Source of the DNA: Elusimicrobiota bacterium
GTDB taxonomy: Bacteria; Elusimicrobiota; Elusimicrobia; F11
Direction: 5' to 3'
Assembly: GCA_046153645.1 (NCBI GenBank)
Contig: JBJXGI010000056.1
Span: 1-64,000 of the forward strand
Length of the DNA stretch: 64,000 bases
This document shows positions 729-51,862 of this stretch, piece by piece (positions within the stretch are counted from its first letter, which is position 1; the number at the start of each line of letters is the position of its first letter). Both the position numbers and the translations under genes were made by a program. A model generated the notes under the pieces. It worked only from the letters and a program-made list of their open reading frames with translations, did not search any database and was not told where the DNA came from.

Positions 729-737
729 AGTTCTCTT

Positions 738-1853: not shown

Positions 1854-1855
1854 TT

Positions 1856-2611
1856 GTGCCTCATTTTTTTGTTCAACCTGGTGAAATATCCGATCAGTTG
1901 TTTCAGTTAAAGGGTGATAGTGCCCATCATTTAATTCGCGTTCTTCGCGTTAAGAGTCATGACCCTATTTTCTTGTTTGACGGCAATGGGAAAAGGTTTG
2001 AGGCTATTGTCAAATCTGTTGATGTCAAAAATAATTTTGTGAACGGTCAAATTCTCAAATCTTCGCAAGATCTTCCTTCTCGTTTTTCTGTTCGTTTACT
2101 GCAAGGGATTCCTCGTGGACCCAAATTTGATTTTGTTATAGAAAAGTCAGTTGAATTGGGAGTCACAGAAATTATTCCTTTTTTTAGTGAAAAAAACCCC
2201 GTTGTTTGGGAGGGGAAAAAAGACAATAAAGTAGAGAGATGGGAGCGTATTGTTTTGTCGGCTTGTGAACAATCGGAACATTCTTATCTTCCCAAAATTT
2301 ATTCTCCTTGTGAATTCAAAGAGTTAGAAAAAATTATTAAACAATCTTCGGGATCAATTATTTTAGACCCTTTGGCAGATAAGGGGAGTTTAAAGAAAAC
2401 TTTTTCTGGTTGGTTTAAAGATCAAAACTCCGAAAGAACAGAAATCTTTAATATCATTACAGGGCCTGAAAGTGGTTTTTCTCCGATTGAAGTTAAAACG
2501 CTGCAAAATTGGGGAGCGGTTTCCACCTCATTGGGTCGAGAAATTTTACGAACAGAAACAGCGGGGTTAGCAGCTCTGGCCATGTTTAAATATGCGGGGG
2601 AAACAATTTGA
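1856..2611 (+). CDS. rsmE: 16S rRNA m3U1498 methyltransferase
   Basis: HLIRVLR, EKSVELGV, GPESGFS, LGREILRTETA motifs. Confidence 0.95.
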   Translation: MPHFFVQPGEISDQLFQLKGDSAHHLIRVLRVKSHDPIFLFDGNGKRFEAIVKSVDVKNNFVNGQILKSSQDLPSRFSVRLLQGIPRGPKFDFVIEKSVELGVTEIIPFFSEKNPVVWEGKKDNKVERWERIVLSACEQSEHSYLPKIYSPCEFKELEKIIKQSSGSIILDPLADKGSLKKTFSGWFKDQNSERTEIFNIITGPESGFSPIEVKTLQNWGAVSTSLGREILRTETAGLAALAMFKYAGETI

Positions 2612-3837
2612 AAATTTGGAGTTATACCTTTGGCTGCAAAGTCAATCAATATGAAACGGAGTTATTGCGTCACCGCATTTCATCGCCCGGTGATACACTT
2701 GTTAAAAATCCCGAAGAGGCCGACCTTTGTTTGGTGAACACGTGTACGGTCACTCAATTTGCTGATAAAGAATGTCGCCAACTCATTCGAAAAGTGTTGC
2801 GTGCCAATACGACAGCGCGCGTTATTGTGACAGGGTGTTACGCCACGCGCGACTCACAAGAAATCAAAGATATTTCACCTCGTTTAGAAGTTTATACCAA
2901 CCAAGAAAAAAATGAACTCCCTTCATGTATTGGTTTTGAAGTGGCCGATAAACCCTTAGGTATCCACCAATTCGCTGGTCGCACGCGCGCTTTTTTAAAA
3001 ATTCAAGATGGCTGTAAAGCGCCTTGTAACTATTGCATTATCCCCACAGTAAGACCTGATATGACCAGTAAAACGGTTACACAAGTTTTAGAGGAAGTAA
3101 ACGCTCTCCTTGATCACGGTTACCAAGAAATTGTTCTCACGGGGATTCGTTTGGGTCTTTATCGAGGTGTGGGAGAAGGTGGAAATAAAATTGATTTGTT
3201 GTCATTGTTAAAAATAATAACAGCCATTCCGCGCAAATTTAGAATTCGTCTTTCCTCGCTAGAAGTCACCGAAGTAACAGATGAGCTTATTGATTTTGTT
3301 TCAAAAAACTCAAAAATTTGCCGTCACTTTCACATTCCTATGCAATCGGGAAATTCAGAAGTCCTTAAAAATATGCGGCGCTGGTACAATGCCGATTTTT
3401 ATATGGAGCGCGTAGAAAAAGTTCGGTCCGTTATGCCGGATTGCGGAGTGACGGCTGATGTGATGGTGGGTTATCCCACTGAAACTGAAGAGCAGTTTAT
3501 GATCACCTATGAAAACATTAAAAAAATGAATCTTTCAGGCCTTCATGTATTTCGATTTTCTGCCCGAGAAGGAACGCCGGCGGCAACTCTAAAACCTTTA
3601 CAGTCGAGCCATATCTCCGAACGCGCCGAACGCTTAGGAAAATTAGACAAAGAACTGCGTGAGGCTTTTTACCGACGTTTTGAAGGTGCGACGCGAGAAG
3701 TGTTGCCAGAACCCTCCGGTGAAGGTTGGAGCGATAATTATATTCGAGTTGATGTCCCCTTAAACTTAGTTCCTCACGGTATGGGAACCCATAAAATTTC
3801 CAGCCATGAGTATCCCCCTATTGCGTTATCTATTTAA
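2608..3837 (+). CDS. mtaB: tRNA methylthiotransferase MtaB (radical SAM)
   Basis: TFGCKVNQYE, NTCTVT, TGCYA, KIQDGC..C.YC; follows rsmE. Confidence 0.92.
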   Translation: MKIWSYTFGCKVNQYETELLRHRISSPGDTLVKNPEEADLCLVNTCTVTQFADKECRQLIRKVLRANTTARVIVTGCYATRDSQEIKDISPRLEVYTNQEKNELPSCIGFEVADKPLGIHQFAGRTRAFLKIQDGCKAPCNYCIIPTVRPDMTSKTVTQVLEEVNALLDHGYQEIVLTGIRLGLYRGVGEGGNKIDLLSLLKIITAIPRKFRIRLSSLEVTEVTDELIDFVSKNSKICRHFHIPMQSGNSEVLKNMRRWYNADFYMERVEKVRSVMPDCGVTADVMVGYPTETEEQFMITYENIKKMNLSGLHVFRFSAREGTPAATLKPLQSSHISERAERLGKLDKELREAFYRRFEGATREVLPEPSGEGWSDNYIRVDVPLNLVPHGMGTHKISSHEYPPIALSI

Positions 3838-9775: not shown

Positions 9776-9808
9776 CATCTTTTCTGTTGAGGAATTTGTT
9801 GTTTCGTA

Positions 9809-9830
9809 TTACAATTATATATAATTGTAA
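9809..9830. promoter_or_regulatory. Perfect 22-bp palindromic operator overlapping a TATAAT -10 box
   Basis: TTACAATTATATATAATTGTAA; TATAAT at 9820-9825, ATG at 9833. Confidence 0.75.
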
Positions 9831-9832
9831 AC

Positions 9833-10330
9833 ATGAAGGTTATTATTTCAGATACATCTCCATTAATTCTTTTGACCAAGGTTGGTTTATTGAATTTGAT
9901 TGCTGAACGATTTTCTCTGGTTATTTCCAAGGATGTCGCCTTAGAGGCCACTTGTCGACAGGATTTGCCAGATGCGCAGTCAATTCAGGTTCTCATTGAT
10001 AAAAAGAAGATTTCTGTGAAAGTTATCAGTGAAAGTAAAACCTTGGGATTGAAAAATCAATGGGGTATTGGTCGTGGGGAAGCATCTGTTTTGGCGCTGG
10101 CGTTAAAAGAAAATCGAGTTTTGGTTACAGATGATTTTTCTGCCATGAGAGTCGCGCGAGCTCTCAATATTTCATTCGTGACAAGTGTATTGTTAATCGT
10201 TCAATTGCAACATAAGGGGATTTTAAGTTTTCAAGTAGCTGATGAAAAATTAATGGCTTTACAAGAGTACGCGTGGTTAAGTTCCGAAGTCGTGGCCGAT
10301 GCGAGGCAACGTTTAAAAGGAGGAAAATAA
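9833..10330 (+). CDS. PIN-domain nuclease (DUF3368/VapC-like toxin)
   Basis: IISDTSPLI, GRGEASVLALA, LVTDD PIN motifs. Confidence 0.85.
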   Translation: MKVIISDTSPLILLTKVGLLNLIAERFSLVISKDVALEATCRQDLPDAQSIQVLIDKKKISVKVISESKTLGLKNQWGIGRGEASVLALALKENRVLVTDDFSAMRVARALNISFVTSVLLIVQLQHKGILSFQVADEKLMALQEYAWLSSEVVADARQRLKGGK

Positions 10331-10332
10331 AT

Positions 10333-10626
10333 ATGGTTCTTGCTGTTCGCTTGGATAAATTGCAAAGAGATCAACTTCGGTTTATTTCAAAAAAGCGTCA
10401 TTTGAATAAAACCCAAGCGGTCAAAGAGTTGTTAAATAAAGGGTTTCTGATGTGTCAATTAGATGAATATCGTTCAGGTCATATTTCTTTAGGAAAATTA
10501 GCTGAGATTCTTGGTATTTCTATCTTTGAGACCATGAATCATGTCGCTGCTTATAATGCCCACCCTAAAATACCAGGGGATTATCTGATGGATATCGCAG
10601 AAACATCTAAAAAGTTGGTTTCGTAA
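10333..10626 (+). CDS. Putative antitoxin (RHH plus UPF0175-like HTH)
   Basis: VLAVRLD RHH-like strand; YRSGHISLGKLAEILGIS; AGGAGG upstream of ATG 10333. Confidence 0.75.
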   Translation: MVLAVRLDKLQRDQLRFISKKRHLNKTQAVKELLNKGFLMCQLDEYRSGHISLGKLAEILGISIFETMNHVAAYNAHPKIPGDYLMDIAETSKKLVS

Positions 10627-10644
10627 AAATTATTGTTTGTGTTA

Positions 10645-10711
10645 GTTTTTTGGACATATGTCTAAAAAACTCGCGATTATTTTTGACGCCCATCCAAAAT
10701 ACTCGTAATAT
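10645..10711. promoter_or_regulatory. Palindromic operator(s) and sigma70 promoter of the AAA+ ATPase
   Basis: GTTTTTTGGACATATGTCTAAAAAAC (one mismatch); TTGACG(10683)-N17-TAATAT(10706). Confidence 0.6.
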
Positions 10712-10717
10712 GCCTTT

Positions 10718-11827
10718 ATGGAACGTTACCTTGAAAATCAAATAAGAAAAGATTTAAACAAAAAAATGGTCTTTTTAGGTGGACCCAGACAAGTTGGAAA
10801 AACAACTTTGGCCAAAAAGATTTTGAATTTGGGGAAAGGTTATTTTAATTGGGATTTTTCCGAGCATCGCGAAAAAATTTTAAAAATGAATTTCCCAAAA
10901 GAACCACTGCTTGTATTTGATGAACTTCATAAATATCGGAAATGGCGTAATTATCTAAAAGGCCTCTATGATGTTAAAAAAGAGCAATACAAAATATTGG
11001 TTACTGGTAGCGCACGTTTAGATTATTACCGATTTGGTGGAGATTCCCTTCAAGGGCGTTATCATTATTTGCGTTTGCATCCCCTTTCCGTTGCAGAACT
11101 GAAAATAAACAGCCTTTCTGATTTAAAAACATTGATAACTCTCAGTGGGTTCCCTGAGCCCTTTTTTTCGGGTTCAGCTGTCGAGGCTAAACGTTGGTCG
11201 CGTGAGCATCGAAATTTTTTACTAAATGAAGAGTTGCGAGATCTTGAAAGGGTTCATGATATAGGACAATTAGAGTTGTTGATGTTACGACTTCCAGAAT
11301 TGGTGGGTTCTCCCTTATCAATTAATAATTTGGTTGAGGATTTACAAATAAGTCATAAAACATTAACTAAGTGGCTCGAAATGTTAGAGAGAATTCATGC
11401 TATTTTTCGTGTCCCGCCTTTTGGTGCCCCTCGCATTCGAGCAGTAAAAAAATCAATGAAACATTATCAAGTTGATTGGAGTCTAGTTCGAGAAGAGGGG
11501 TTCCGATTTGAAAATGTTGTGGCGTCACACTTATTAAAATGGGTTCAATATGAAAGTGATACCAAAGGGCGTGAATTGGAGTTGAGGTATTTTCGAGATG
11601 TTGATGGCCGAGAAGTTGATTTTGTTATTACAGAAAATCGTCAACCAATTCAGTTGATTGAAGTCAAATGGGCAGATGACGAGATTGTAACAGGGCTAAA
11701 ATATTTAAAAGCCCGTTTCCCTCGTTCCGAGGCACTGCAAATCTCCGCTATGGGGAAAAAGAACTATGTGTCACGAGAGGGAATTCGTGTCTGTCCTGCC
11801 CTTCCTTTTCTTCGTGGGCTGGTGTAA
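10718..11827 (+). CDS. AAA+ ATPase (AAA_14/DUF4143) with C-terminal PD-(D/E)xK-like region
   Basis: GPRQVGKTT, LVFDELH, VTGSA, SLQGR, YFRD..GREVDF..IEVK. Confidence 0.9.
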   Translation: MERYLENQIRKDLNKKMVFLGGPRQVGKTTLAKKILNLGKGYFNWDFSEHREKILKMNFPKEPLLVFDELHKYRKWRNYLKGLYDVKKEQYKILVTGSARLDYYRFGGDSLQGRYHYLRLHPLSVAELKINSLSDLKTLITLSGFPEPFFSGSAVEAKRWSREHRNFLLNEELRDLERVHDIGQLELLMLRLPELVGSPLSINNLVEDLQISHKTLTKWLEMLERIHAIFRVPPFGAPRIRAVKKSMKHYQVDWSLVREEGFRFENVVASHLLKWVQYESDTKGRELELRYFRDVDGREVDFVITENRQPIQLIEVKWADDEIVTGLKYLKARFPRSEALQISAMGKKNYVSREGIRVCPALPFLRGLV

Positions 11828-11831
11828 ATAA

Positions 11832-12185
11832 ATGTCTACCCCAAATGACTGTATTTTTTGTAAGATTGCCGCCGGTCAAATTCCGGCAAATATTGTTTAT
11901 CAGGATGAACAAGTCATTGCTTTTCGGGATCTCACACCGGTTGCACCTGTACACATTTTAACGATACCAAAGAAACATATTGATCGGTTGTCAGCTGTTG
12001 AAGAGCACGATTTTTCTTTAATTGCGCATTTACATAAAGTTATTCAGAAAATAGCTGAAAAAGAAGGGATTTCAAAGACGGGTTTCCGTCTGACAACCAA
12101 TAACGGCGGGGATGCGGGGCAAAGCGTTCAACATTTACATTTTCATTTACTCGGCGGTCGTAAACTGAGTTGGCCTCCGGGCTAA
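11832..12185 (+). CDS. hinT: HIT family nucleotide-binding protein
   Basis: DCIFCKI, GQSVQHLHFHLLGGR..WPPG. Confidence 0.92.
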   Translation: MSTPNDCIFCKIAAGQIPANIVYQDEQVIAFRDLTPVAPVHILTIPKKHIDRLSAVEEHDFSLIAHLHKVIQKIAEKEGISKTGFRLTTNNGGDAGQSVQHLHFHLLGGRKLSWPPG

Positions 12186-12213
12186 TTTAACTCCAAAAGG
12201 TGGTGTTTGTTCA

Positions 12214-12414
12214 GTGGTTTTAGTGAAACTTCGAGAGGGAGAATCCATAGAAGAAGCTCTTCGGCGATTTAAGCGCGAATGCGAAAGAAACGGCATTATG
12301 CAAGAAATCAAAAGAAGAGAATATTTTGAATCTCCCGCTCTTCGCAAAAAAAGAAAAGCGGCAGAAGCCAGACGGAAATTAAAACGTCGGTTGATGCGCC
12401 AAAAACGTAGATAA
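12214..12414 (+). CDS. rpsU: 30S ribosomal protein S21
   Basis: ESIEEALRRFKR...RREYFESP. Confidence 0.95.
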   Translation: MVLVKLREGESIEEALRRFKRECERNGIMQEIKRREYFESPALRKKRKAAEARRKLKRRLMRQKRR

Positions 12415-39399: not shown

Positions 39400-39537
39400 T
39401 TTGAAAATAACATAGGTGTTATCTTCAAAAAACAATGGCGTTCGAACCTTTCGGGTCGAATGCTTTTTTTTTGTCTTTTAATTGTGCCAATGAAGGCGCT
39501 CATCCACCAGGAGTGTGGGGTTGAGCGCTTTTTTTTT
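39400..39537 (+). ncRNA. ANTAR-type antitermination leader: three hexaloop hairpins and two intrinsic terminators
   Basis: ATAAC-ATAGGT-GTTAT; AAC-AATGGC-GTT overlapping terminator GCGTTCGA..TCGAATGC-T9; GCC-AATGAA-GGC overlapping terminator GGCGCTCA..TGAGCGCT-Tn; all loops have A1 and G4. Confidence 0.8.
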
Positions 39538-39558
39538 GTAATTACAGGGGAATAAAGG

Positions 39559-41994
39559 ATGGAACGGAAACATTTAGTTGTTATTGGAAATGGAATGGCT
39601 GGGATGGCCTGTCTTGACCAAATCCTCCAAAAAAAACCTTTTTTAACGATTACCGTTATAGGGGAAGAACCCCATTATAACTATAACCGTATTCTTCTCT
39701 CCTCGGTTTTAGCAGGAGAAAAAGCCTTCGATGATATTTTCATTAATACCAAAGAGTGGTATGAACAAAATCAAATTGAGCTTCTTCTTAATACCAAAGT
39801 ACTTGATGTTAATTCCAAACAAAAAACCATCACAACTTCAAACAATCAAATAATTCCTTATGACATGCTTTTGTTGGCAACGGGAAGTAACCCGTTCATT
39901 CCTCCGATTGAGGATGTTAAAAAAGAAGGTGTTTTCGTTTTTAGAAATATTTCGGATACACAAAGAATGATCGAAATGGCCAAACAATCCAAAAAAGCGG
40001 TCGTGATTGGAGGGGGATTGTTGGGGTTGGAAGCAGCTCGCGGATTGCAATCACATGGACCTGAAGTGACGGTGGTTCATAACAGTGATGTCCTTATGAA
40101 TGCCCAGTTAGATAAAGTGGGAAGTCAATTCTTAAAAAGAGAAATTGAAAAGATCGGGATTCAAATTTTTCTTGGAAAGGTGAGTGAGAAATTTTTAGGA
40201 AATGGAAAAGTAGAAGGGGTTCAATTTAAAGATGGCAGTCGATTAGAAGCCGATATGGTCGTCATTTCCTGTGGTATTCGCCCGAATATTGAGTTAGGGG
40301 TTAAAGCGGGACTTGAGGTCAACAGAGGAATTTTGGTTAATGATTTTATGGAAACCAGCGATCCCTCTATTTTTGCCGTTGGTGAATGTGTTGAGCATAG
40401 AGGGGTTACTTATGGTCTTGTTGCTCCTCTTTACGATCAAGGTCGAGTTTTAGCCAATACTCTCACCGGTGACAAAGGCCCCGTTTATGAAGGCTCAACG
40501 CCAGCGGCAAAACTCAAAGTGATGGGTATTGAGCTTTTTTCAGCCGGCACCATGAATCCTTCCGGTGAAAATATTGATGCGATTACTTATGAAGACCACA
40601 TTGAAGGGCTCTACAAAAAAGTACTGCTAAAAAACAATGAAATTATTGGAACAATTCTTATTGGTGATTCAAAAGATGCCAATCGATTTTTAGAGCGAAT
40701 GAGAAAAAAAGAAAAGATTGGTCGAAAACATAACCTATTGTTTGAACTCCCTGCTGAAATCGGATCTAAAGACGATGTCATGGCCCGCCCTGATACCGAT
40801 ATTATTTGTGGTTGTATTGGTGTTTCCAAAGGGCAAATGATGGAAGCGGTTCGAGAAAAAGGGTGTAAAAGTGTATCTGATATGAAGGCTTGCACAAAAG
40901 CGACTTCTGGTTGTGGCACTTGTACGGGACTTGTTAAAGATATTTTAAAGGCCATGGTGGGCACAGAATTAAAAGAAGAAAAAAAAGAAACAGTCTGTGC
41001 TTGCATTCCCTTTTCTAAGGTACAACTAAGAACGATTATTCAAACTCAGAAACTAAAGTCAGTTCAAGATTTATTGGATATTTATGGCAATGGCACCGGT
41101 TGTTCATCTTGTAAACCGGCCTTAGCCTTTATTGTGGATGAAGCCCTTATGGGAGAACATGAAGAAGATCGATCAACAAGATATATCAATGATCGAGTTC
41201 ATGCGAATATTCAGAAAGACGGAACATTTTCCGTTATCCCCAGAATGAGAGGTGGCGTGACCTCTTCTGATGAATTACGAAAAATTGCTGATGCCGCAGA
41301 TAAATATAAGGTCAAGATGGTGAAAGTCACTGGGAGTCAACGAATTGATTTATTGGGAGTGAAAAAAGAAGATCTTCCTAAGATGTGGGCTGATTTAGGA
41401 ATGCCATCAGGGCACGCCTATGCGAAAGCGGTTCGAATGGTTAAGTCTTGTGTGGGCACCGATTTTTGTCGTTTTGGGACCCAAAATTCTATTGAGACGG
41501 GAATCCATCTTGAGAAAATGTTGGAAGGTTTATACACCCCGGCCAAAGTGAAATTGGGAGTCGTTGGATGTCCGCGCAATTGCGCTGAGGCCACTGTTAA
41601 AGATATTGGGCTCGTTGGAATTGAGGGAGGGTGGCAAGTGGTCATTGGAGGGGCCGCGGGGAAAATAGTGCGAGAGGCGGATATCTTGTCAACTGTGCAA
41701 ACCACGGATGACGCCTACGAAGCCGTTTGTTTGTTTTTTCAGTTTTATAGAGAAAATGGTGAATATTTAGAAAGAACTTACGATTTTGTTGAAAGAGTGG
41801 GTTTAAAAAAAATCAGGGAGGAAACCGTATTGGCCTCTTCGGAAAATAAAAAAGCATTGTTAGATCGGTTAGCGAAATCAAAAGAAAAAGTTGTGGATCC
41901 TTGGGCAGTAGAAGCGTCTCGTCCTATTCATCCAACTCAATTTAGTGATTTTGTTTTACCGAAAGACAAAGAGGCCTTGGTGAATGTGAAATGA
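39559..41994 (+). CDS. nirB: NAD(P)H nitrite reductase large subunit
   Basis: GNGMAG FAD site, GGGLLGLEAA, two BFD-like Cys clusters, HANIQKDGT, CVGTDFC...GCPRNC siroheme/4Fe-4S ligands. Confidence 0.96.
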   Translation: MERKHLVVIGNGMAGMACLDQILQKKPFLTITVIGEEPHYNYNRILLSSVLAGEKAFDDIFINTKEWYEQNQIELLLNTKVLDVNSKQKTITTSNNQIIPYDMLLLATGSNPFIPPIEDVKKEGVFVFRNISDTQRMIEMAKQSKKAVVIGGGLLGLEAARGLQSHGPEVTVVHNSDVLMNAQLDKVGSQFLKREIEKIGIQIFLGKVSEKFLGNGKVEGVQFKDGSRLEADMVVISCGIRPNIELGVKAGLEVNRGILVNDFMETSDPSIFAVGECVEHRGVTYGLVAPLYDQGRVLANTLTGDKGPVYEGSTPAAKLKVMGIELFSAGTMNPSGENIDAITYEDHIEGLYKKVLLKNNEIIGTILIGDSKDANRFLERMRKKEKIGRKHNLLFELPAEIGSKDDVMARPDTDIICGCIGVSKGQMMEAVREKGCKSVSDMKACTKATSGCGTCTGLVKDILKAMVGTELKEEKKETVCACIPFSKVQLRTIIQTQKLKSVQDLLDIYGNGTGCSSCKPALAFIVDEALMGEHEEDRSTRYINDRVHANIQKDGTFSVIPRMRGGVTSSDELRKIADAADKYKVKMVKVTGSQRIDLLGVKKEDLPKMWADLGMPSGHAYAKAVRMVKSCVGTDFCRFGTQNSIETGIHLEKMLEGLYTPAKVKLGVVGCPRNCAEATVKDIGLVGIEGGWQVVIGGAAGKIVREADILSTVQTTDDAYEAVCLFFQFYRENGEYLERTYDFVERVGLKKIREETVLASSENKKALLDRLAKSKEKVVDPWAVEASRPIHPTQFSDFVLPKDKEALVNVK

Positions 41995-42716
41995 GTGAAA
42001 TAATAAATAAGAATATTCATTGGGTTCCTGTCGCTAATAAAAACTTAATTCCGAAAAACGAAGGGAGAAAAGTTATTTGGGGGAAAAAAAAGATCGCAAT
42101 TTTTAATTTGGGGGATGAGTTTTTGGCTGTTGATAACCAATGCCCTCATAAACAAGGGCCATTGGCTGACGGAATTACAGCCGGAAAAGCGGTGTATTGC
42201 CCCCTTCATAATTGGAAAATAGATTTAAAAACGGGATGTACCTTGGCAGGGGGAGAAGGGAAAGTGAAATCCTATCCCGTCATGATCAAGGGGTCTGATA
42301 TTTACATCGGTTTTGAAACCGTGGAGAAGGATATTCAAATGAAAGAAATCTTGGCGATTATTCGACCTAATAAGTGGGGAGAAACCAAAAAAAAGTTGAC
42401 CGAAATAGGTGTTAATGCCTTTACTCAAAGAAGAGTTTATGGAAGAGGAAAACAAAAGGGCCTGACCTATCGAGCCAATAAAAATGAAGGGCCCTCTTCT
42501 CAAACCGGGATTCAATTTATTCCTAAAAGAATGATTTTAATTGTTGTCCCTGAATCACAAGTTAAATTGGTTGTGAATGGTCTTATTGAAGTAAATCAAA
42601 CAGGGGCTATTGGAGACGGAAAGATTTTTATTTCTCAAATGAATGAGGTTATTTTAATTCGCACTGGTGAAAAAGAAAATCAAATAAAAGAGATTGAAGA
42701 AGAGGTGATGATATGA
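41991..42716 (+). CDS. nirD: NirD Rieske subunit fused in frame to a NifI2-like PII domain
   Basis: aa 1-116 carry Rieske ligands CPH...CPLH; aa 117-241 read MKEILAIIRPNK...GRGKQKG...PKRMI...NQTGAIGDGKIF...IRTGE. Confidence 0.88.
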   Translation: MSEIINKNIHWVPVANKNLIPKNEGRKVIWGKKKIAIFNLGDEFLAVDNQCPHKQGPLADGITAGKAVYCPLHNWKIDLKTGCTLAGGEGKVKSYPVMIKGSDIYIGFETVEKDIQMKEILAIIRPNKWGETKKKLTEIGVNAFTQRRVYGRGKQKGLTYRANKNEGPSSQTGIQFIPKRMILIVVPESQVKLVVNGLIEVNQTGAIGDGKIFISQMNEVILIRTGEKENQIKEIEEEVMI

Positions 42717-43030
42717 AAATGATTCGAGCCATTGTAAGACCGGAAAAAGAAGAAGCCGTGGTCAAGTCACTAGATGAAGCAGGTTTTCCTTCCATTACCA
42801 AGTTTGATGTATTAGGGCGTGGAAAACAAAAAGGGATTCAAATTGCTAATTCCGTTTATGATGAACTGGCTAAAAGTTTTTTGATGTTAGTTGTCGATGA
42901 TAGCGCACTTCCGAGAGCTGTAGAAGCCATTCAATCAGGAGCTCGCACGGGTAATTTCGGTGATGGGAAAATTTTTGTCACTGATGTTGCAGCCGCTTAT
43001 ACCATTCGTACTGGAAAAGAAGGACTTTAA
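42713..43030 (+). CDS. PII-family protein, NifI1-like
   Basis: MKMIRAIVRPEK, GRGKQKGI...YDEL.K, TGNFGDGKIFV, AYTIRTG; 105 aa with short T-loop. Confidence 0.88.
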   Translation: MKMIRAIVRPEKEEAVVKSLDEAGFPSITKFDVLGRGKQKGIQIANSVYDELAKSFLMLVVDDSALPRAVEAIQSGARTGNFGDGKIFVTDVAAAYTIRTGKEGL

Positions 43031-43047: not shown

Positions 43048-44364
43048 ATGCTGAAAGGTAAAAATCTGATCAGGGGGATTTGGTTTGCTTTCATTGTAGT
43101 GTCGTTGGGCGTTGTCCAAACGTGGGCTGATATCACCTTTAGCGGTGAATTCCGGCTTCGCCCCGAATATAAAAAAAATGCCGATTTTAATAAGGCAACC
43201 AAAGACACGCAATCATTTGTAGGTTCCAGATTACGTATTTCTGGGGCTGGTTTAGCGGCAGAAGATATTGCAGTTAAAGTTACTTTTCAAGATACACGTA
43301 ATTGGGGTGAGGAACCAGGTTCTGGTGCGGTTAATGGCCTTACAGATAGTGGTGAGGCTATTGATATCCATGAAGGATTCGTTGATTTTCAGAATTTTTT
43401 AAAAACGCCCTTTTCATTTCGAGCGGGAAGACAAGAATTGTCTTTTGGTGATCAAAGACTGATTGGGTCTTTTGGGTGGAATAATCAAGGCAGAGCCTTC
43501 GATGCTTTTCGATTGATGTATGTTGGAAACCAGTTTATGGTTGATGCGTGGACAGCCAAGAGAAAAGAAAATAATGCAACCACAGCGGGTGTTCCTTCTA
43601 ACGATCGAGATTTTTCGGGTATATATGGGACAATGAAACCTGTTTTTCCTGGAGCTTTATTAGACGTCTATTTTCTTCATGACAGAGAAGGGGATACCAC
43701 CGGTAATGCAGAGCCAAAAAATGTTTACACGTATGGACTGCGACTTTCTGGTAAAAATGGTTTCATCGATTACACGGTGGAAGCGCCATTTCAATTCGGA
43801 CAGAATGGTACAGTTGTTGGCGTTTCATCTGATTCAGTTAAAATTTCGGCAAACGCATTGGCTGCTAAAGTCGGTTTTACAATCCCTGGAGATAAAGAAA
43901 TAAGATTCGGGACTGAATATGATTATGCTTCTGGCGATGATAATTTGTCAGATACCAAAGCCAAAACATTCAATAATTTGTACCCCACCAATCATCTTTT
44001 TTATGGATATATGGACTATCAAGGATGGAGAAATCTAAGTGCTTGGAATGCAAATTTAAGTTTCAAACCTCAAAGGCCTTGGTTCCTTTCAATTCATTAC
44101 TGGGTTTTCAATTTAGCTGAGGAGAAAGATGGCTGGTATAACGCCGCTGGCACGGCTTCAGGTTCTTTACGTGCTGCCTCTAGTGCCAATACGGAAAAAA
44201 ATATTGGGCAAGAAATAGATTTATTGGCTCGATTTACTCAAAGCTCTCGTGTTATTTGGGAGTTTGGTTATAGCCGTTTTTTTGCTGGAGACTTAATAGA
44301 TCAAAGAGTTGCCAATGACTCTGCTTCTGACTGGGCATATGTTATGAGCACCATTAAATTTTAA
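43048..44364 (+). CDS. Outer-membrane beta-barrel porin (alginate-export/AlgE-like)
   Basis: Signal peptide, GEFRLRPE, GRQELSFGDQRLIG, YASGD, LYPTNH, terminal F. Confidence 0.8.
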   Translation: MLKGKNLIRGIWFAFIVVSLGVVQTWADITFSGEFRLRPEYKKNADFNKATKDTQSFVGSRLRISGAGLAAEDIAVKVTFQDTRNWGEEPGSGAVNGLTDSGEAIDIHEGFVDFQNFLKTPFSFRAGRQELSFGDQRLIGSFGWNNQGRAFDAFRLMYVGNQFMVDAWTAKRKENNATTAGVPSNDRDFSGIYGTMKPVFPGALLDVYFLHDREGDTTGNAEPKNVYTYGLRLSGKNGFIDYTVEAPFQFGQNGTVVGVSSDSVKISANALAAKVGFTIPGDKEIRFGTEYDYASGDDNLSDTKAKTFNNLYPTNHLFYGYMDYQGWRNLSAWNANLSFKPQRPWFLSIHYWVFNLAEEKDGWYNAAGTASGSLRAASSANTEKNIGQEIDLLARFTQSSRVIWEFGYSRFFAGDLIDQRVANDSASDWAYVMSTIKF

Positions 44365-44380: not shown

Positions 44381-45688
44381 ATGAAAGATTTAAATAAAAA
44401 TAATGAAAATAAAAAAGAAGATTTGTTGACGAATTTAGATCAAGAAATTTCAAGAAGAAATTTTTTGAAAGGGGCTGGGGTATTAGCGGCTAGTTTAATG
44501 ATCCCAAGCGTTTTTAAATCGATGATTCCAGGTGCTTATGCTTCTGATGCTCCGGAAACAACAACCATGCGTTTTGGAATTATTGCCTTAACAGATTGCG
44601 CTTCAATTGTTATGGCGCATGAATTGGGTTTATTTAAAAAATACGGAATTAATTCTGTTATTTCTAAAGAAGCGTCCTGGGCGGTTATACGCGATAAATT
44701 GAATTTGGGAGAAAATCATGCCACACACATGTTATTAGGAATGCCCTATGCTTCTACGATGGGCCTCTTGGGTTCTCCCAAGCGACCGATGGTCATTCCG
44801 TTGGTACTGAACCGAAATGGACAAGGCATCACACTTCAAAAAAAATATGCTGGAAAAGTAAAAAATCCAGCTGATTTAAAAACATTTGTTTACCAAGCTA
44901 AAATGGGGGGCAGCCCTCTCAACTTTGCTATGACGTTTCCTCCTGGAACTCATGCGATGTGGTTAAGATATTGGTTGGCTTCAGGAGGTATTCATCCCGA
45001 TCGAGACGTGTCCTTAATTACAGTTCCTCCTCCACAAATGGTTCAGAATATGCGAATCGATAAAATGGATGGATACTGCGTGGGCGAACCATGGAATGGG
45101 CGAGCCATTTCTGATGGGATTGGGTTTACTGTGACGAGTTCTCAGAAAATCTGGAAAGATCATCCTGAAAAAGTTTTGGCTTTCACTGAAGATTTTGCTC
45201 ATAAAAACCCGAATTCTGTAAAAGCAGCCATGAAAGCGATTATAGAAGCAAGTCAATTTATAGACAAAATGGAAAACAGAGAAAAAGTAGCTGAAATAGT
45301 TTGTAAACCGCAATACATCAATTGCCCCAAAGAAGTGATTTTAGACCGACTTCAAGGAAAGTATAACTATGGAGATGGCAGTCCGATCGAGCAAGACCCA
45401 AACTACATGACGTTTTTTGATCGAAATACCAATTTTCCATATAAATCACATGGGCTTTGGTTTATGAGTCAGTTTCGTCGATGGGGAATGGTCAAGGGGA
45501 CGCCGGATTATAATTCGGTTATCAATAAGGTTCATCGACCTGATATTTTTAGGGAAGTAGCCAAAGAAATGAAGTTGTCTGTTCCAACAGAAGATATGAA
45601 AAAAGAAACTTTATTTGATGGAAAAATTTTCGATCCTTCAAATCCTGAAGCTTACGCGAAAAGTTTTTCTATTCATAATTTGGCTTAA
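44381..45688 (+). CDS. nrtA: Nitrate/nitrite ABC transporter substrate-binding protein (NrtA/CmpA family), Tat signal
   Basis: SRRNFLK; GIIALTDCA, TFPPGTH, VPPPQMV, CVGEPW, HPEK. Confidence 0.9.
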   Translation: MKDLNKNNENKKEDLLTNLDQEISRRNFLKGAGVLAASLMIPSVFKSMIPGAYASDAPETTTMRFGIIALTDCASIVMAHELGLFKKYGINSVISKEASWAVIRDKLNLGENHATHMLLGMPYASTMGLLGSPKRPMVIPLVLNRNGQGITLQKKYAGKVKNPADLKTFVYQAKMGGSPLNFAMTFPPGTHAMWLRYWLASGGIHPDRDVSLITVPPPQMVQNMRIDKMDGYCVGEPWNGRAISDGIGFTVTSSQKIWKDHPEKVLAFTEDFAHKNPNSVKAAMKAIIEASQFIDKMENREKVAEIVCKPQYINCPKEVILDRLQGKYNYGDGSPIEQDPNYMTFFDRNTNFPYKSHGLWFMSQFRRWGMVKGTPDYNSVINKVHRPDIFREVAKEMKLSVPTEDMKKETLFDGKIFDPSNPEAYAKSFSIHNLA

Positions 45689-45698
45689 AGGAGGCAAT

Positions 45699-46472
45699 GT
45701 GACTAAAAAATTTGATTGGCCATCAGTCATTTTACCTTTCTGTGGAATAATTTTTATTCTTATTCTTTGGACAATGGTGAGTAAAACGATAGCAAAAGAC
45801 TTGCCCACACCTTGGGTGACATGGCAAGAAAGCAAAATATATATTCTCAATCCTTTTTTCAAGGAAGGAGAAATGAATCAAGGAATGGGACGGTTGGCTT
45901 TTTACAGTCTTGTCAGGGTTGCAAAAGGGTTTACACTGGCTCTTATTTTGGCAACGCCTTTAGGTTTTTTAATTGGGCTTTCAAAAAAAATGTCTCAGGC
46001 TTTTGATCCGATTATCCAAGTTCTTAGACCTATTTCACCGCTGGCATGGTTGCCACTGGGTATGATTATTTTTCAAAAATCAGAACCCGCCGGTATTTTT
46101 ACTATTGCTGTTTGTGCGATGTGGCCAACGGTTTTAAATACGGCTGTTGGTGTCCGTCGAATTAATACAGATTATCTTAATGTTGGTCGTGTCTTAAAGT
46201 TATCCCCAACAAAAATGTTTTTTAAGATTATTATGCCGGCGACCATGCCTTATGTTTTTACCGGATATCGGTTAAGTTTGGGAATCGCTTGGCTTGTGAT
46301 TGTGGCCAGTGAAATGTTAACGGGGTCTCCTGGTATTGGCGGATTTTTGTGGCAGGAATACAATGCTTTGATTTATTCCCATATTATTTTGGCCATTATC
46401 ACCATCGGTGTTATTGGTTTTATTTTAGATCGCATGATGGGTATGGTCGAAAAGAAATTTCAGGTAGGTTAA
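45699..46472 (+). CDS. nrtB: Nitrate ABC transporter permease
   Basis: LRPISPLAWLP, LGIAWLVIVASEML; GTG start after AAGGAGG. Confidence 0.9.
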   Translation: MTKKFDWPSVILPFCGIIFILILWTMVSKTIAKDLPTPWVTWQESKIYILNPFFKEGEMNQGMGRLAFYSLVRVAKGFTLALILATPLGFLIGLSKKMSQAFDPIIQVLRPISPLAWLPLGMIIFQKSEPAGIFTIAVCAMWPTVLNTAVGVRRINTDYLNVGRVLKLSPTKMFFKIIMPATMPYVFTGYRLSLGIAWLVIVASEMLTGSPGIGGFLWQEYNALIYSHIILAIITIGVIGFILDRMMGMVEKKFQVG

Positions 46473-46480
46473 GAGAATTT

Positions 46481-47251
46481 ATGAGTTTTCTTGAAATTAA
46501 AAACGGTGCCAAAAGTTTCTCTTCTGAAAAAGGTGAGATTAATGTTTTAAAAGACATTAACCTTTCTATGGAGGAAGGTGAGTTTGTTTCGATTGTGGGT
46601 TATTCTGGTTCAGGAAAAACAACTTTGGTTTCTATGATTGCAGGGCTTATCCGGCCTGATCAAGGAAAAATAACTTTGGCTGGAAAAGAAATTGTTGCTC
46701 CTGGGCCAGATCGAGGCGTTATTTTTCAAAACTATTCTCTTTTGCCATGGATGAATGTTTATGAAAATGTTTTTTTGGCGGTTGATGCGGTTTCTCAAAA
46801 TCTCTCCCCAAAAGAAAAAAAAGAAAAAACAGAATCGTATATCAACTTAGTTAAGTTGGGTGCGGCGATGAGCAAAAAACCCAGTGAACTGAGTGGTGGC
46901 ATGCGGCAACGGGTTTCTGTGGCGCGTGGATTAGCGATGGAGCCCAAAGTGTTACTTCTTGATGAGCCTTTTAGTGCGTTAGATGCTTTAACACGCTCTT
47001 CTTTGCAAGATGAACTTCAAAGAATTTGGACTGAAACCAAAAAAACCATCATCATGATCACAAACGATGTTGATGAGGCTATTTTATTAGCGAATCGTAT
47101 TTTCCCACTCACTAAAGGGCCCGGGGCCACTTTAGGTGATGAAATACCTGTTCATATTTCAAGACCACGGAGTACTCGAAAGCTGAGCTTAGAACCAGGT
47201 TATAAAGAAGTTAAAAAAAAGATTGTTGATTTTTTAATAAAAAATTTATGA
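46481..47251 (+). CDS. nrtC: Nitrate ABC transporter ATP-binding subunit
   Basis: GYSGSGKT, LSGGMRQR, LLLDEPF. Confidence 0.85.
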   Translation: MSFLEIKNGAKSFSSEKGEINVLKDINLSMEEGEFVSIVGYSGSGKTTLVSMIAGLIRPDQGKITLAGKEIVAPGPDRGVIFQNYSLLPWMNVYENVFLAVDAVSQNLSPKEKKEKTESYINLVKLGAAMSKKPSELSGGMRQRVSVARGLAMEPKVLLLDEPFSALDALTRSSLQDELQRIWTETKKTIIMITNDVDEAILLANRIFPLTKGPGATLGDEIPVHISRPRSTRKLSLEPGYKEVKKKIVDFLIKNL

Positions 47252-48090
47252 AAAAGATCTTAGAAATTTCTCAACTTGGTAAATCCTACCCCACTCCCAG
47301 TGGAGGAGAGGCTGTTATTGTTAAAAATTTTAATTTGGACATTCAAGAGGGTGAATTCGTTTCTATTTTGGGACATTCAGGCTGCGGAAAATCAACCGTT
47401 CTGTCTATTGTTATGGGGTTAAGCGAATTATCATATGGAGGTGTTATCCTCGGAGGACGAGAAATTGATGGCCCTGGAATAGACCGAGGCGTGGTTTTTC
47501 AAGCGGCCTGTCTTTTTCCGTGGTTTTCAGTCATTGAAAATATTCTTATTTCGATTGACCAGGTTCATAATTTAAAAACAAAAAAAGAAAAACGAGAGTT
47601 GGCCCAGTATTATTTAAAGTTGGTTGGATTGGAAGGCAGTGAGAACCGTTATCCCAATGAAATGTCGGCGGGGATGAGGCAACGAGTGGGAATTGCGCGC
47701 GCCTTTGCTATGGAGCCCAAAATTTTACTTTTAGATGAACCTTTTAGTTTGCTTGACGCTTTAACGCGGCTTGAACTTCAAAGCCAATTAACTCGAATTT
47801 GGGAACAGGATAAAAAAACAGTGCTTATGGTGACTCATGACGTTGATGAAGCTTTGTTTTTGTCTGATCGAATTGTCATGATGACATCAGGTCCGGCGGC
47901 GGGTATTGGAAAAATTATTTCTGTTCCGTTTGATCGCCCTCGCGATCAAGCTCAATTGTTTAATCACCCAGATTATTTTTGGATGAGAGATAGACTCACC
48001 AATTTTTTAGAAGATCAATCGCATCAAAAAAAAGATAGAGAAGCTTCCGGTGAAGAGCGAGTTAAGATGGAAGCTGTCGTTGATCAATAG
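47248..48090 (+). CDS. nrtD: Nitrate ABC transporter ATP-binding subunit
   Basis: [24 protein letters not shown]. Confidence 0.85.
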
Positions 48091-49274: not shown

Positions 49275-51383
49275 GTGCCTGTCCGAGTTATTCCAGGAAA
49301 TTTTAAAAAAGTAAGAACCCATTGTAATTTGTGCGCGATGCAATGTGGTTTTCAACTGTTGGTTGAACCTGAGAATAATCAAGTCATTGGGGTGGAAGGG
49401 GATCCTGATTTTCCAACAACGCACGGACTCATGTGTGTAAAAGGGACCAATTCAACAAAACAAATTCATCACCAAGATAGAATATTAGCCCCTCTTATGC
49501 GGCCCCATCCTGAGGCCTCTTTTGCGCCCGTTTCTTGGAGTCGTGCCCTCGCTGAGTGCGCTGAAAAAATAAAGGCTATTCAGGAAAAATATGGGCTTGA
49601 TAGTTTTGCTGTTTATGGAGGAGGCGCCTTAACCAATGAAACAATTTACCTTCTTTCTAAGTTTACCCGAGTTGTTTTAAAAACACGGAACATCGATTAC
49701 AATGGCCGGTTTTGTATGTCTTCGGCAGCGGCAGCTCAAAATAAAGTTTTTGGGGTTGACCGAGGAATGCCTTTCCCCGTGAGTGATATTGCGAAGGCAA
49801 AATTTATTTTATTGGTGGGTGCCAATATTGCTGAATGTCTTCCTCCTATGATGGATGTTTTTAAAGAAGCACGTTCAAAAGGGGCGGTGGTTTTTTTAGT
49901 TGACCCTCGAAAAACAGATACCATGCGAGTTGCCGATAAACATCTTTGTATTGAACCGGGAACCGATATTGAATTTGCTAAAGCTGTATTACATGTGATG
50001 TTTAAAGAAAAGTGGGTGGATTATTCTTTTATAGAAACTCAAACGGAAAATTTTTCCCAATTAAAAAAATCAATGGAGTTATTTTCTTTAGAATCAGCTT
50101 CTCAGTTAACGGGCATTCCGGTGCAAGAGATAGAACTAACAGCCCGGCTCTTATTTCTCAGTGAGACTGCCATGATTTTATCTGCTCGTGGAGCTGAGCA
50201 ACAATCAAAAGGGGTGGATACTGTTATTTCTTTGATCAATCTTATTTTGGTCGCAGGGAAAATAGGTGTTCCCGGAAGTGGTTTTGGAACTTTGACAGGA
50301 CAAGGAAATGGTCAGGGGGGTAGAGAACATGGTCAAAAAGCAGACCAACTTCCCGGTTACCGCAAGATTGAAAATCCAAAACATCGAGAAGAGATAGCGA
50401 AAATTTGGCAAGTCAATCCTGCTGATTTGCCGGGAGCCGGTTTATCCGCTTATGAGCTATTAGATGCTATTGTTCGCAAAGAAATTAAAGGTTTATTTGT
50501 CATGGGGTCAAATCCCGTCATGTCCGCTCCTCAAGCCAAAGAGATAAAAAAAGCTTTTAAAGAATTAGAATTTTTGGCGGTCGTCGATTTTTTTCCTTCA
50601 GAAACAGTTGATTTGGCGCAGGTCGTTTTACCCACCACCATGTGGGCAGAAGAAATGGGAACCACGACCAATTTAGAGGGAAGGGTTCTTTTGCGAGAGA
50701 AAGCCATTCAGGCGCCTCCTGAGGTGAAGCCTGATTGGAGAATTCTTTGTGAGTTAGCAAAACATCTGAACCATCCTCAGGGTTTTTTATTTGATTTGAT
50801 TGAAAATGTTTTTGAGGAATTTACTCTCGCCACGAAGAATGGAATTGCTGATTATTCTGGAATTACCTACGACAAAATTAGAAAAGAAAAAGGGGTTCAT
50901 TGGCCTTGTGTTTCAGAAGAAGATAGGGGTACTCCAAGGTTATTTTTAGATAAAAAGTCGTGGCATCCGAATAAAAAATTTGTTTTTCATGATGTTTCTT
51001 ATCGCCCTATTGCGGAAAAGCCTGATTGTGAATTTCCTTATATTCTTACAACAGGACGTTTATTGCACCAATATCTGACGGGAAACCAAACGCATAGAAT
51101 TCCGGAATTGGAAGTTTTTAATAAAGAACCAAAAGCAGAAATACCAACTGAAGTAGCAGCCAAGCTTTCTCTTCAATCGGGAGACCTTGTTCGCCTCATT
51201 ACCCGACGAGGATCTGTTGAGATAAAAGTTAAAGTGATGGAGGGAATGAATTCTCTGACTGTTTTCGTTCCGTTTCATTGGGGAGGGGAACAATGTATTA
51301 ACCAATTGACGAATCCGGCATTAGACCCGGTTTCACGAATGCCTGAATTCAAAGCCTGCGCGGTAAAAATTGAAAAAATATGA
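49275..51383 (+). CDS. nasA: Assimilatory nitrate reductase catalytic subunit (Mo-bisMGD, 4Fe-4S)
   Basis: CNLCAMQC..CVKG, NGRFCMSSA, LTGQGNGQGGRE, DPVSRMPEFK; no signal peptide. Confidence 0.9.
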   Translation: MPVRVIPGNFKKVRTHCNLCAMQCGFQLLVEPENNQVIGVEGDPDFPTTHGLMCVKGTNSTKQIHHQDRILAPLMRPHPEASFAPVSWSRALAECAEKIKAIQEKYGLDSFAVYGGGALTNETIYLLSKFTRVVLKTRNIDYNGRFCMSSAAAAQNKVFGVDRGMPFPVSDIAKAKFILLVGANIAECLPPMMDVFKEARSKGAVVFLVDPRKTDTMRVADKHLCIEPGTDIEFAKAVLHVMFKEKWVDYSFIETQTENFSQLKKSMELFSLESASQLTGIPVQEIELTARLLFLSETAMILSARGAEQQSKGVDTVISLINLILVAGKIGVPGSGFGTLTGQGNGQGGREHGQKADQLPGYRKIENPKHREEIAKIWQVNPADLPGAGLSAYELLDAIVRKEIKGLFVMGSNPVMSAPQAKEIKKAFKELEFLAVVDFFPSETVDLAQVVLPTTMWAEEMGTTTNLEGRVLLREKAIQAPPEVKPDWRILCELAKHLNHPQGFLFDLIENVFEEFTLATKNGIADYSGITYDKIRKEKGVHWPCVSEEDRGTPRLFLDKKSWHPNKKFVFHDVSYRPIAEKPDCEFPYILTTGRLLHQYLTGNQTHRIPELEVFNKEPKAEIPTEVAAKLSLQSGDLVRLITRRGSVEIKVKVMEGMNSLTVFVPFHWGGEQCINQLTNPALDPVSRMPEFKACAVKIEKI

Positions 51384-51862
51384 AACGGCCATCATTATCG
51401 CATGTGGATGTTCAAGGTAAAATAAAAATGGTTGATGTGAGTGGGAAGTCAACAACCATGCGTGAAGCTTCTGCCTATGGGGAAGTTCACTTGAAAGCTC
51501 AAACCATTAAATTGATCAAAAACGGGCTTATGCGTAAAGGTGATGTTTTATCGACGGCTCGTTTGGCCGGAATTATGGCGGGAAAAAGGACGGATGAACT
51601 TATTCCCTTATGTCACTCTTTACAAATTGAGTCTTTAGATGTTTCTATAAAAGTTTTAACTCGTTCCATTCAAATTCAATCGAGAGTTGTCTGTGAGGGA
51701 AAAACAGGCGTTGAAATGGAAGCTCTCACGGCTGTGAGTGTTGCCGCCTTAACCATTTATGATATGGCCAAGGCCGTTGATAAAAATATTGTCATTGGGC
51801 CCATTTATCTTTCCGAAAAAAAAGGCGGGAAATCAGGGCATTTTAAAAGAGGAAAAATATAA
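51380..51862 (+). CDS. moaC: cPMP synthase
   Basis: MVDVS, LIPLCH, TGVEMEAL, GGKSG. Confidence 0.96.
   Translation: MKRPSLSHVDVQGKIKMVDVSGKSTTMREASAYGEVHLKAQTIKLIKNGLMRKGDVLSTARLAGIMAGKRTDELIPLCHSLQIESLDVSIKVLTRSIQIQSRVVCEGKTGVEMEALTAVSVAALTIYDMAKAVDKNIVIGPIYLSEKKGGKSGHFKRGKI

Follow-up and report, generated by a model that had tools for sequence, protein, structure and literature searches.

The operon and its NirD::P-II fusion gene

A 64,000-nucleotide stretch of DNA from an Elusimicrobiota bacterium (GCA_046153645.1, contig JBJXGI010000056.1, positions 1-64,000 of the forward strand; "the window" below means this whole stretch) carries an operon for nitrate and nitrite assimilation, with all genes on one strand in the order nirB-(nirD::PII)-PII-porin-nrtABCD-moaA-nasC-moaC. 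The subject of this work is the pair of P-II units encoded in this operon, one fused to the Rieske subunit of nitrite reductase, NirD, and the other a free-standing protein of 105 amino acids (aa). Judged by phylogeny and by matches to solved structures, the two units are NifI2-like and NifI1-like, respectively, and not members of the GlnB/GlnK subfamilies.

An earlier, sequence-only reading of the window had pointed to one uninterrupted open reading frame (ORF) that joins a Rieske NirD with intact ligands to a P-II domain, and profile searches bear this out. The ORF is open throughout, with no internal stop across the Rieske-P-II junction, and its product comprises a Rieske/Rieske_2 domain (residues 10-106, about 42018-42308; Rieske_2, 52 bits in Pfam), a linker of roughly 10 residues, and a P-II domain (residues 117-227, 80 bits; cut-off, 25) that, together with a C-terminal tail reaching residue 241, occupies 42339-42713. 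By its curated score, which narrowly exceeds the threshold of the NCBIfam NirD model (TIGR02378; 76.2 bits vs 74.65), its Rieske fold, and its location directly 3' of nirB, the fusion is a member of the NirD family. The Rieske ligands C51, H53, C70, and H73 (CxH...CxxH) are invariant in all 10 aligned fusions, and the length of the junction is identical in nine of these. An AlphaFold2 model built from this 10-row alignment (mean predicted local distance difference test score, pLDDT, 76) consists of two confident domains connected by a short helix, with pLDDT of 83-93 across residues 11-110 and low confidence in the T-loop (about residues 151-177) and the tail (225-241). The following gene encodes, as had been proposed, a 105-aa P-II protein (Pfam P-II at residues 1-102, 88.6 bits), and the motifs CPH...CPLH, MKEILAIIRPNK, IGDGKIF, GRGKQKGI, and AYTIRTG are all present in the window proteins.

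The search was extended to other Rieske-P-II fusions. In a collection of 5.8 billion proteins, both domains were found in 7 of the 96 non-query matches (P0002-P0007 and P0009; 53-73% identity). The full-length fusion is encoded in two of 393 genomes of the same class, namely, the window genome and G483 (64% identity), which belongs to another family of the class and has the operon nirB-(nirD::PII)-PII(89%)-nrtABCD-moaA-nasC-moaC; among 401 genomes sampled across the phylum, the fusion was detected in the window genome only. An exhaustive HMMER search of 1.84 billion representative sequences, followed by Pfam annotation of 16 selected matches, yielded two 50%-identity clusters with the Rieske_2 and P-II combination, represented by P0006 and by P0219, which is further removed at 44% identity. 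For four of the fused proteins among P0002-P0007, P0009, and P0219, the longest contig has the same length as that of a NifI1-like match, which merely hints that the two genes are adjacent. Because the fusion recurs in seven other proteins and in G483, it is not an assembly accident. Furthermore, Logan contigs of four DNA sequencing runs from one study (including X1 record 2, X3 record 11, and X4 record 13) span the junction (42300-42340) with zero differences, although these do not count as independent evidence because they possibly derive from the source sample. There was no RNA run among the runs listed as containing the stretch. Close NirB relatives from metagenomes (L050 and L051; 70-77% identical) are accompanied by a plain NirD and no P-II gene, and a metagenome scan with the fusion as the query returned five loci, each with NirD only; the fusion is therefore a lineage-specific addition.

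The stop codon of nirB and the start codon of the fusion gene overlap in an ATGA sequence (41991-41994), as do the stop of the fusion and the start of the 105-aa P-II gene (42713-42716), an arrangement typical of translational coupling, so that the three genes are probably coupled. The nirB product scores well above the cut-off of its NCBIfam model (TIGR02374; 887.7 bits vs 578) and contains the Pfam families Pyr_redox_2, Fer2_BFD, NIR_SIR_ferr, and NIR_SIR. Downstream, the nrtABCD genes (44381..48090) encode, by Pfam, an ABC nitrate/nitrite transporter in which NrtC is short (300 aa), with ABC_tran as the sole domain shown; the top family for the NasC-like protein is NF047855 (NasC; 852.9 bits, under the cut-off of 1100). 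The porin gene inserted between the P-II gene and nrtA has no counterpart in the otherwise syntenic G483 operon and could encode a nitrate/nitrite porin.

The nirB leader folds with a minimum free energy of -57 kcal/mol (z -2.89; 1 of 200 shuffled sequences was as stable), and its hairpins look like terminators, attenuators, or antitermination targets that might have a regulatory role. A leader of the attenuator or antitermination type is known for Paracoccus nasABGHC. No Rfam family reached its gathering score in the leader; a match to a plastid 3' untranslated region family (29.2 bits vs a gathering score of 55.8) was treated as chance. Across the operon, sigma-70 promoter patterns (31 vs 30.5 expected) and terminator patterns (11 vs 14.3) occur at chance level.

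Just upstream of the operon lies a gene for a SWIB/MDM2-domain protein (38971-39285, + strand; 104 aa; PF02201, 98.7 bits), followed by a terminator-like hairpin at ~39309-39340. Further upstream on the same strand are a 1486-aa ORF (33194-37654), whose product has multiple hydrophobic segments and matches no Pfam family at E <= 1e-4, and a pair of genes (37746-38853) for an HTH_3 (Xre-type) protein (164 aa) and a protein without a Pfam match (207 aa), the start of the latter being overlapped by the former; this pair may be a two-gene module, for example, an antitoxin-toxin pair.

Table 1. Features of the nitrate/nitrite assimilation operon, in order of position in the window
Feature	Position	Strand	Description
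nirB 5' leader	39437..39541	+	strong hairpins 39437-39464 and 39492-39532, 9 U after each
nirB	39559..41994	+	811 aa; NAD(P)H nitrite reductase large subunit; FAD/NAD, BFD-like 2Fe-2S, and sirohaem/4Fe-4S domains
nirD::nifI2-like fusion	41991..42716	+	241 aa
nifI1-like P-II	42713..43030	+	105 aa
porin-like, Alginate_exp family	43048..44364	+	438 aa; PF13372, 200.8 bits
nrtA	44381-45688	+	NMT1_2 with twin-arginine translocation (TAT) signal
nrtB	about 45615-46472	+	BPD_transp_1; start uncertain
nrtC	about 46349-47251	+	ABC_tran; start uncertain
nrtD	47248-48090	+	ABC_tran
moaA	48246..49271	+	Radical_SAM, Mob_synth_C; molybdenum cofactor biosynthesis
nasC-like	49275..51383	+	702 aa; assimilatory nitrate reductase catalytic subunit; Molybdopterin, Molydop_binding, Molybdop_Fe4S4
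moaC	51380..51862	+	PF01967, 181 bits

NifI-type P-II units outside nif clusters

In searches against the PDB, the top match of the fused P-II domain was chain G of 9p1x (125 aa, E 7.6e-29; best GlnB, 5.4e-21) and that of the 105-aa protein was chain H of the same entry (E 1.7e-31; next match, 1.9e-23). Entry 9P1X is cited in a preprint on the Methanosarcina acetivorans NifDK-NifI1-NifI2 supercomplex, which describes six heterotrimers with two NifI1 and one NifI2 subunit each (PMC12439982); because six I1(2):I2 heterotrimers would account for the 105-aa chains (12 copies) and the 125-aa chains (6 copies) of the entry, chain H was taken as NifI1 and chain G as NifI2. The 105-aa window protein aligns with 9p1x_H ungapped from end to end (1-105 to 1-105), whereas alignment with Archaeoglobus fulgidus GlnB-1 requires four gap positions in the T-loop; in size and in its T-loop, shorter than that of GlnB, it has the features of NifI1. 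The fused domain has five extra T-loop residues compared with GlnB (1ul3) and a tail that continues past RTGE to residue 241, in agreement with the longer T-loop and extended C-terminus that distinguish NifI2 from NifI1 and GlnB (PMC12439982). The Tyr51/Ser49 site of the GlnB/GlnK T-loop is missing, with ..SQTG.. of the query facing ..GSEY.. of GlnB in the PDB alignment, and the GlnB/GlnK models of NCBIfam, whose cut-offs are 181-202 bits, give the window P-II units 49-75 bits. The ligand-binding motifs are retained in the alignments, namely, the T-loop base GRGKQKG, the Lys of ..PK.., the B-loop TGxxGDGKIF, and the C-loop RTG.

Phylogenetic analysis agrees with these matches. P-II regions cut out with hidden Markov models (HMMs; 245 pieces) were collected from same-phylum loci and from the 80 best loci found in a genome set with one representative per species, and P-II genes were labelled by their neighbours using blastp with the window and locus proteins. 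Redundancy at 85% identity was removed from the nif-linked and GlnB/K-like rows and left untouched in the rest, which resulted in 127 rows and 112 columns, a small number, with 19 GlnB/K rows as the root. Two of the rows come from proteins that already contribute another HMM piece, and four are on long branches (P0219, P0267 domain 1, the I2 of L116, and one I2 of L138); the SbtB-like P-IIs L005 and L006 fell under the threshold of the NifI1-based HMM, and a query-range filter excluded the P-II domain of the fusion from G483. In the IQ-TREE phylogeny, the 105-aa window protein belongs to a NifI1 clade (support 100/99; 49 rows, including 24 context-verified nif-linked rows) and the fused domain to a NifI2 clade (98/88; 59 rows, including 27 nif-linked rows). 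A tree constrained to group the fused domain with GlnB/K (19 rows) is worse by 47.4 log-likelihood units (approximately unbiased, AU, test, p-AU 0.005). The by-eye assignment of the sequence-only reading, which clustering with ordinary GlnB/GlnK would have contradicted, is thus upheld. Among the relatives, the closest named NifI1-like protein (89% identity) comes from a metagenome-assembled genome (MAG) labelled 'Elusimicrobia bacterium', and the Joint Genome Institute (JGI) names relatives 'PII 1' and 'PII 2'.

The absence of nif genes noted in the window extends, for nifH, to the genome. In the window genome (G000; 2.63 Mb, 99.7% complete), the best match to nifH scored 24.7 bits against a cut-off of 394, so that the target of the NifI1/NifI2 system, nitrogenase, is missing; nifH was also under the cut-off in all five further Elusimicrobia genomes that encode pairs of this kind (completeness, 79-98%). 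The other P-II genes of this genome form two amtB-glnK and two sbtA-sbtB pairs, each beside a known target (L001, L003, L005, and L006 at G000:C20:47217-47534, C85:17390-17710, C18:79641-79904, and C76:31371-31640; sbtA encodes a bicarbonate transporter), which, with the NifI-like pair, brings the P-II family to six members in 2.6 Mb. In three Elusimicrobia MAGs, 'nitrogen fixation protein NifD' is the NCBI name for the 105-aa NifI1-like protein (P0123, P0182, and P0203), a misnomer that could mislead surveys of nif genes.

To define the gene neighbourhoods, the best 80 loci were selected by likeness to the non-nif alignment from at least 534 relatives (at least 603 matched stretches; one genome per species). 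Among these, 59 are nif clusters of the form nifH-I1-I2-nifDK, with nifH directly upstream of I1 in 56 and I2 directly downstream of I1 also in 56, the remaining 3 being cut by a contig end. In 17 loci, from Elusimicrobia, the candidate divisions FCPU426 and WOR-1, Omnitrophota, a Terriglobia MAG, and a Proteobacteria MAG, a sirohaem nitrite reductase lies beside the pair, usually in the layout I2-[narK]-nirA-I1, often followed by nasC/nasA-like genes, moaA, and moaC. The I2-like gene is upstream of 16 of the 18 nitrite reductase-linked I1-like copies in these loci and never downstream, and the window, with nirB-(nirD::I2)-I1, likewise departs from the order nifH-nifI1-nifI2-nifD; the suggestion that I2 precedes I1 here, opposite to nif clusters, therefore holds well beyond the window. 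The type of transporter (NarK or NrtABCD) and of nitrate reductase varies between loci, with nitrite reductase as the constant neighbour. Further nitrite reductase-linked cases were found in Elusimicrobia (L038-L042 and L062-L066). Four of the 80 loci have neither nif genes nor a nitrite reductase (L104, L112, L076, and L136), and L076 and L136 are at contig ends.

Several individual loci have peculiar arrangements. In two FCPU426 MAGs, an I2-I1 pair of the non-nif clade (L112:9569-10315 and L104:3379-4107) is located among unrelated genes for pyrimidine synthesis, NFACT, BacA, and an extracytoplasmic function (ECF) sigma factor, and the target of these pairs, if any, is encoded elsewhere. In an Elusimicrobia MAG, nirA between the P-II genes is split into overlapping ORFs of 226 and 356 aa (L107:8391-9996, the same as L062:6156-7761), the result of a frameshift or sequencing error. 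An Omnitrophota MAG (L138) encodes at 24-3256 a P-II-bearing protein of the flavoprotein::P-II kind described below, cut by the contig start, then a 654-aa NirA with a C-terminal Rieske_2 domain and an I1-like protein; a second set, I2-I1-narK-nasC-moaA, follows 4.6 kb further (7570-12368), so that both sets lie within 13 kb.

All 24 non-nif NifI1 rows (18 nitrite reductase-linked, 5 of unknown context, and that of the window) form one clade (97/80) that includes no nif-linked row and is nested among nif-linked rows, with support of 84-96 for the enclosing branches. This nesting suggests, although a tree is not proof, that the nitrite reductase-linked lineage derives from a nif-type ancestor. 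For NifI2, all 27 nif-linked rows lie to one side of a branch (95/66), and the NirD-fused P-II domains join the unfused P0220 in a clade (96/99). The residues that separate non-nif from nif rows are A47 and A53 in NifI1, both T-loop residues (position 53 is P in nif rows), and P10, W13, and Y44 in NifI2, with Y44 in the T-loop; their location in the T-loops and at P10/W13 of I2 fits a changed target.

Other fusions involving P-II domains were sought among 120 candidates, of which 13 long proteins contain a NifI2-like domain (E <= 1e-10). Twelve of these, representing 12 protein clusters, combine Pyr_redox_2 and Rubredoxin_C with a C-terminal P-II domain. By domain content, the first two constitute a NirB-N-like flavoprotein module of NirB, and JGI calls several of these proteins 'nitrite reductase (NADH) large subunit'; P0225 is a further fusion of this kind. 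Judged by these domains, both recurrent fusion partners, NirD and the flavoprotein, are electron-transfer modules of nitrite reductase. The 13th protein, P0379 (466 aa), couples P-II with a nitrogenase-type Oxidored_nitro domain. Here a NifI2-like domain is attached to the established type of target, which supports reading the other fusions likewise. The tandem I2-like/I1-like fusion P0267 (207 aa) supports co-assembly of the two kinds of subunits. A different partner, an ABC ATPase domain, was found in P0338 (255 aa, possibly incomplete). Given that the link with nitrite reductase spans several phyla and that a second kind of fusion exists, the comparative data exceed what the sequence-only reading had guessed.

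The proposed reductase switch and its rivals

We think it probable, though far from certain, that the two units form an I1(2):I2 heterotrimer that senses 2-oxoglutarate, ATP, and ADP and gates assimilatory nitrite reductase, and perhaps nitrate reductase. By homology with NifI1,2, the I2-like and I1-like units would assemble as two I1 and one I2, and the heterotrimer would bind either MgATP with 2-oxoglutarate or ADP. Because I2 is covalently tethered to NirD, the sensor would sit on the NirBD nitrite reductase, and because the NirD/NasG-type Rieske protein feeds NasC in Paracoccus (PMC5424462), its position may lie on the route by which electrons reach nitrate reductase as well. With fixed nitrogen in abundant supply, 2-oxoglutarate low, and ADP bound, the reductase would be contacted by the extended T-loops, which would keep electrons from reaching the sirohaem domain and possibly also NasC; high 2-oxoglutarate together with ATP would release the block. 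In NirA-type systems, the action of the pair would be in trans, with the ferredoxin site as a possible point of contact. In this scheme we infer heterotrimer formation, the response to ligands, the precise place of contact, and whether the effect is positive or negative. The model is NifI1,2, for which three reports (PMC12439982, 10.64898/2025.12.07.692841, PMC13474568) describe 2:1 heterotrimers that bind ADP or MgATP/2-oxoglutarate and occupy the NifH docking site on NifDK until released by 2-oxoglutarate. An even chance is given to the broader proposition that a sister NifI lineage, spread over at least six bacterial phyla or candidate divisions and encoded as I2-nirA-I1 or fused to a Rieske or flavoprotein electron-transfer module, is a dedicated gate on the sirohaem assimilatory nitrite reductases NirA and NirBD that senses 2-oxoglutarate and energy status, in which case NifI heterotrimers would not be specific to nitrogenase.

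Several observations weigh against such a switch. The ratio of 17 nitrite reductase-linked to 59 nif-linked loci is not a census because the 80 loci are the similarity-ranked best of at least 534. Nitrite reductase is out of reach of the pair in 3 of the 21 non-nif loci (L104, L112, and L076, the last close to the end of its contig). The NirA-like neighbours have the ferredoxin-nitrite reductase model as their top match but score about 455-500 bits against a cut-off of 594, so that the assignment to nitrite leans on the NarK, Nas, and Moa neighbours. The 30 other NifI2 rows group weakly (88/22); the proposal of a repurposed nitrogenase switch-off module is thus suggested by the nesting of NifI1 and gains little from the NifI2 side. 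A block of nitrite reductase alone would also risk nitrite build-up. Finally, P-II in cyanobacteria controls nitrate assimilation at the transporter subunits NrtC and NrtD (PMC6603209).

That last precedent speaks for the alternative that the NifI-like pair regulates uptake (NrtABCD/NarK) or NasC, with the NirD tether merely keeping the pair near the assimilation machinery. The presence of PDB entry 8wm7 among the P-II matches of the fused domain, the joining of P-II to an ABC ATPase domain in P0338, and the service of the Paracoccus Rieske subunit to NasC are compatible with it. We nevertheless regard this alternative as rather unlikely, given that transporter and nitrate reductase types vary between loci, whereas nitrite reductase is constant and usually sandwiched between I2 and I1, that both recurrent fusion partners belong to the electron-transfer apparatus of this enzyme, and that the window NrtC is short and shows an ABC_tran domain only.

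Quite unlikely, too, is that the partners are the same and the effect is another, such that the pair activates, stabilises, or assembles the reductase at high 2-oxoglutarate or tunes the partition of electrons between NasC and NirB. All the characterised NifI pairs described in the three NifI1,2 reports cited above inhibit their target and are released by 2-oxoglutarate, which argues for a block; nothing in the sequence, however, fixes the sign of the effect, and a covalent tether makes the P-II domain a permanent subunit, which is as compatible with an allosteric module as with an inhibitor.

We assign a very small probability to action on expression, for example, by sequestration of a transcription or antitermination factor of the operon. 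The terminator-like hairpins in the nirB leader would suit such a mechanism, and P-II proteins bind regulators in other systems; however, no regulator is a conserved neighbour (LysR in L039 and L040 only, a sigma-54 activator in L038 only), and the fusion partners are redox modules. That the two units are ordinary GlnB/GlnK paralogues or the fusion is a sequencing or assembly error is barely credible and already contradicted: GlnB/GlnK are the sole named NCBIfam P-II matches, no NifI model in the library having matched, yet the scores are far under their cut-offs, the tree and the AU test reject such a placement, and the fusion recurs in other proteins and a second genome, with its junction crossed unchanged by contigs of four runs.

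Relation to known P-II systems and significance

The window pair resembles NifI1/NifI2, known from diazotrophic methanogens such as Methanococcus maripaludis and Methanosarcina acetivorans (9P1X) and from some anaerobic bacteria, in its subfamilies, paired genes, motifs for ATP and 2-oxoglutarate, and expected 2:1 composition, and differs from that system in its location outside a nif cluster, the lack of nifH, the order I2-I1, the neighbouring nitrite reductase, and the fusion of I2 to NirD. Unlike nif-linked NifI1, the non-nif rows form a clade of their own with T-loop substitutions (A53 in place of the nif P). In PMC12439982 and in reviews, nifI genes are placed in nif operons, as a nitrogenase switch-off. 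Among the open-licence papers and bioRxiv preprints searched, we found no link between NifI-type P-II and nitrite reductase and no NirD-PII fusion, although these may be described elsewhere.

Similarly to NirD/NasG of Escherichia coli NirBD and Paracoccus NasBGC, the window protein is a NirD-family Rieske protein encoded directly 3' of nirB, with the full CxH...CxxH of the NasG type; unlike these, it has a C-terminal P-II domain. As with GlnK-AmtB and SbtB-SbtA, a P-II gene lies beside the gene for the protein that is, here presumably, bound; the targets of those two systems are transporters and their P-IIs are homotrimers, unlike the window pair. The control proposed here would share with cyanobacterial GlnB control of nitrate/nitrite uptake the P-II family, the post-translational mode, and dependence on 2-oxoglutarate, but GlnB is a homotrimer encoded elsewhere that acts on a transporter, whereas the window encodes a NifI hetero-pair within the operon, fused or adjacent to nitrite reductase. 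Another dedicated regulator of assimilatory nitrite reductase, as the pair is proposed to be, is NirP1, a small protein that regulates cyanobacterial ferredoxin-nitrite reductase and is tied to the carbon/nitrogen balance (PMC10907346); NirP1 is not a P-II protein and shares no homology with the pair.

The natural NirD::PII and flavoprotein::PII fusions should ease purification and imaging of the sensor-enzyme complex, and the assignment corrects database names such as 'nitrogen fixation protein NifD' or 'PII 1/2' in nitrogenase-free genomes. If the proposed mechanism is true, a NifI lineage that acts on assimilatory nitrite reductase widens the target range of this P-II subfamily and adds a point at which nitrate/nitrite assimilation is controlled post-translationally in organisms other than cyanobacteria. 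Nitrite reductase would then be a second enzyme class controlled through blocking of the electron donor, and the switch-off would be widespread in non-cyanobacterial bacteria and hitherto undescribed. The finding also bears on the evolutionary tie between the regulation of nitrogenase and nitrate assimilation.

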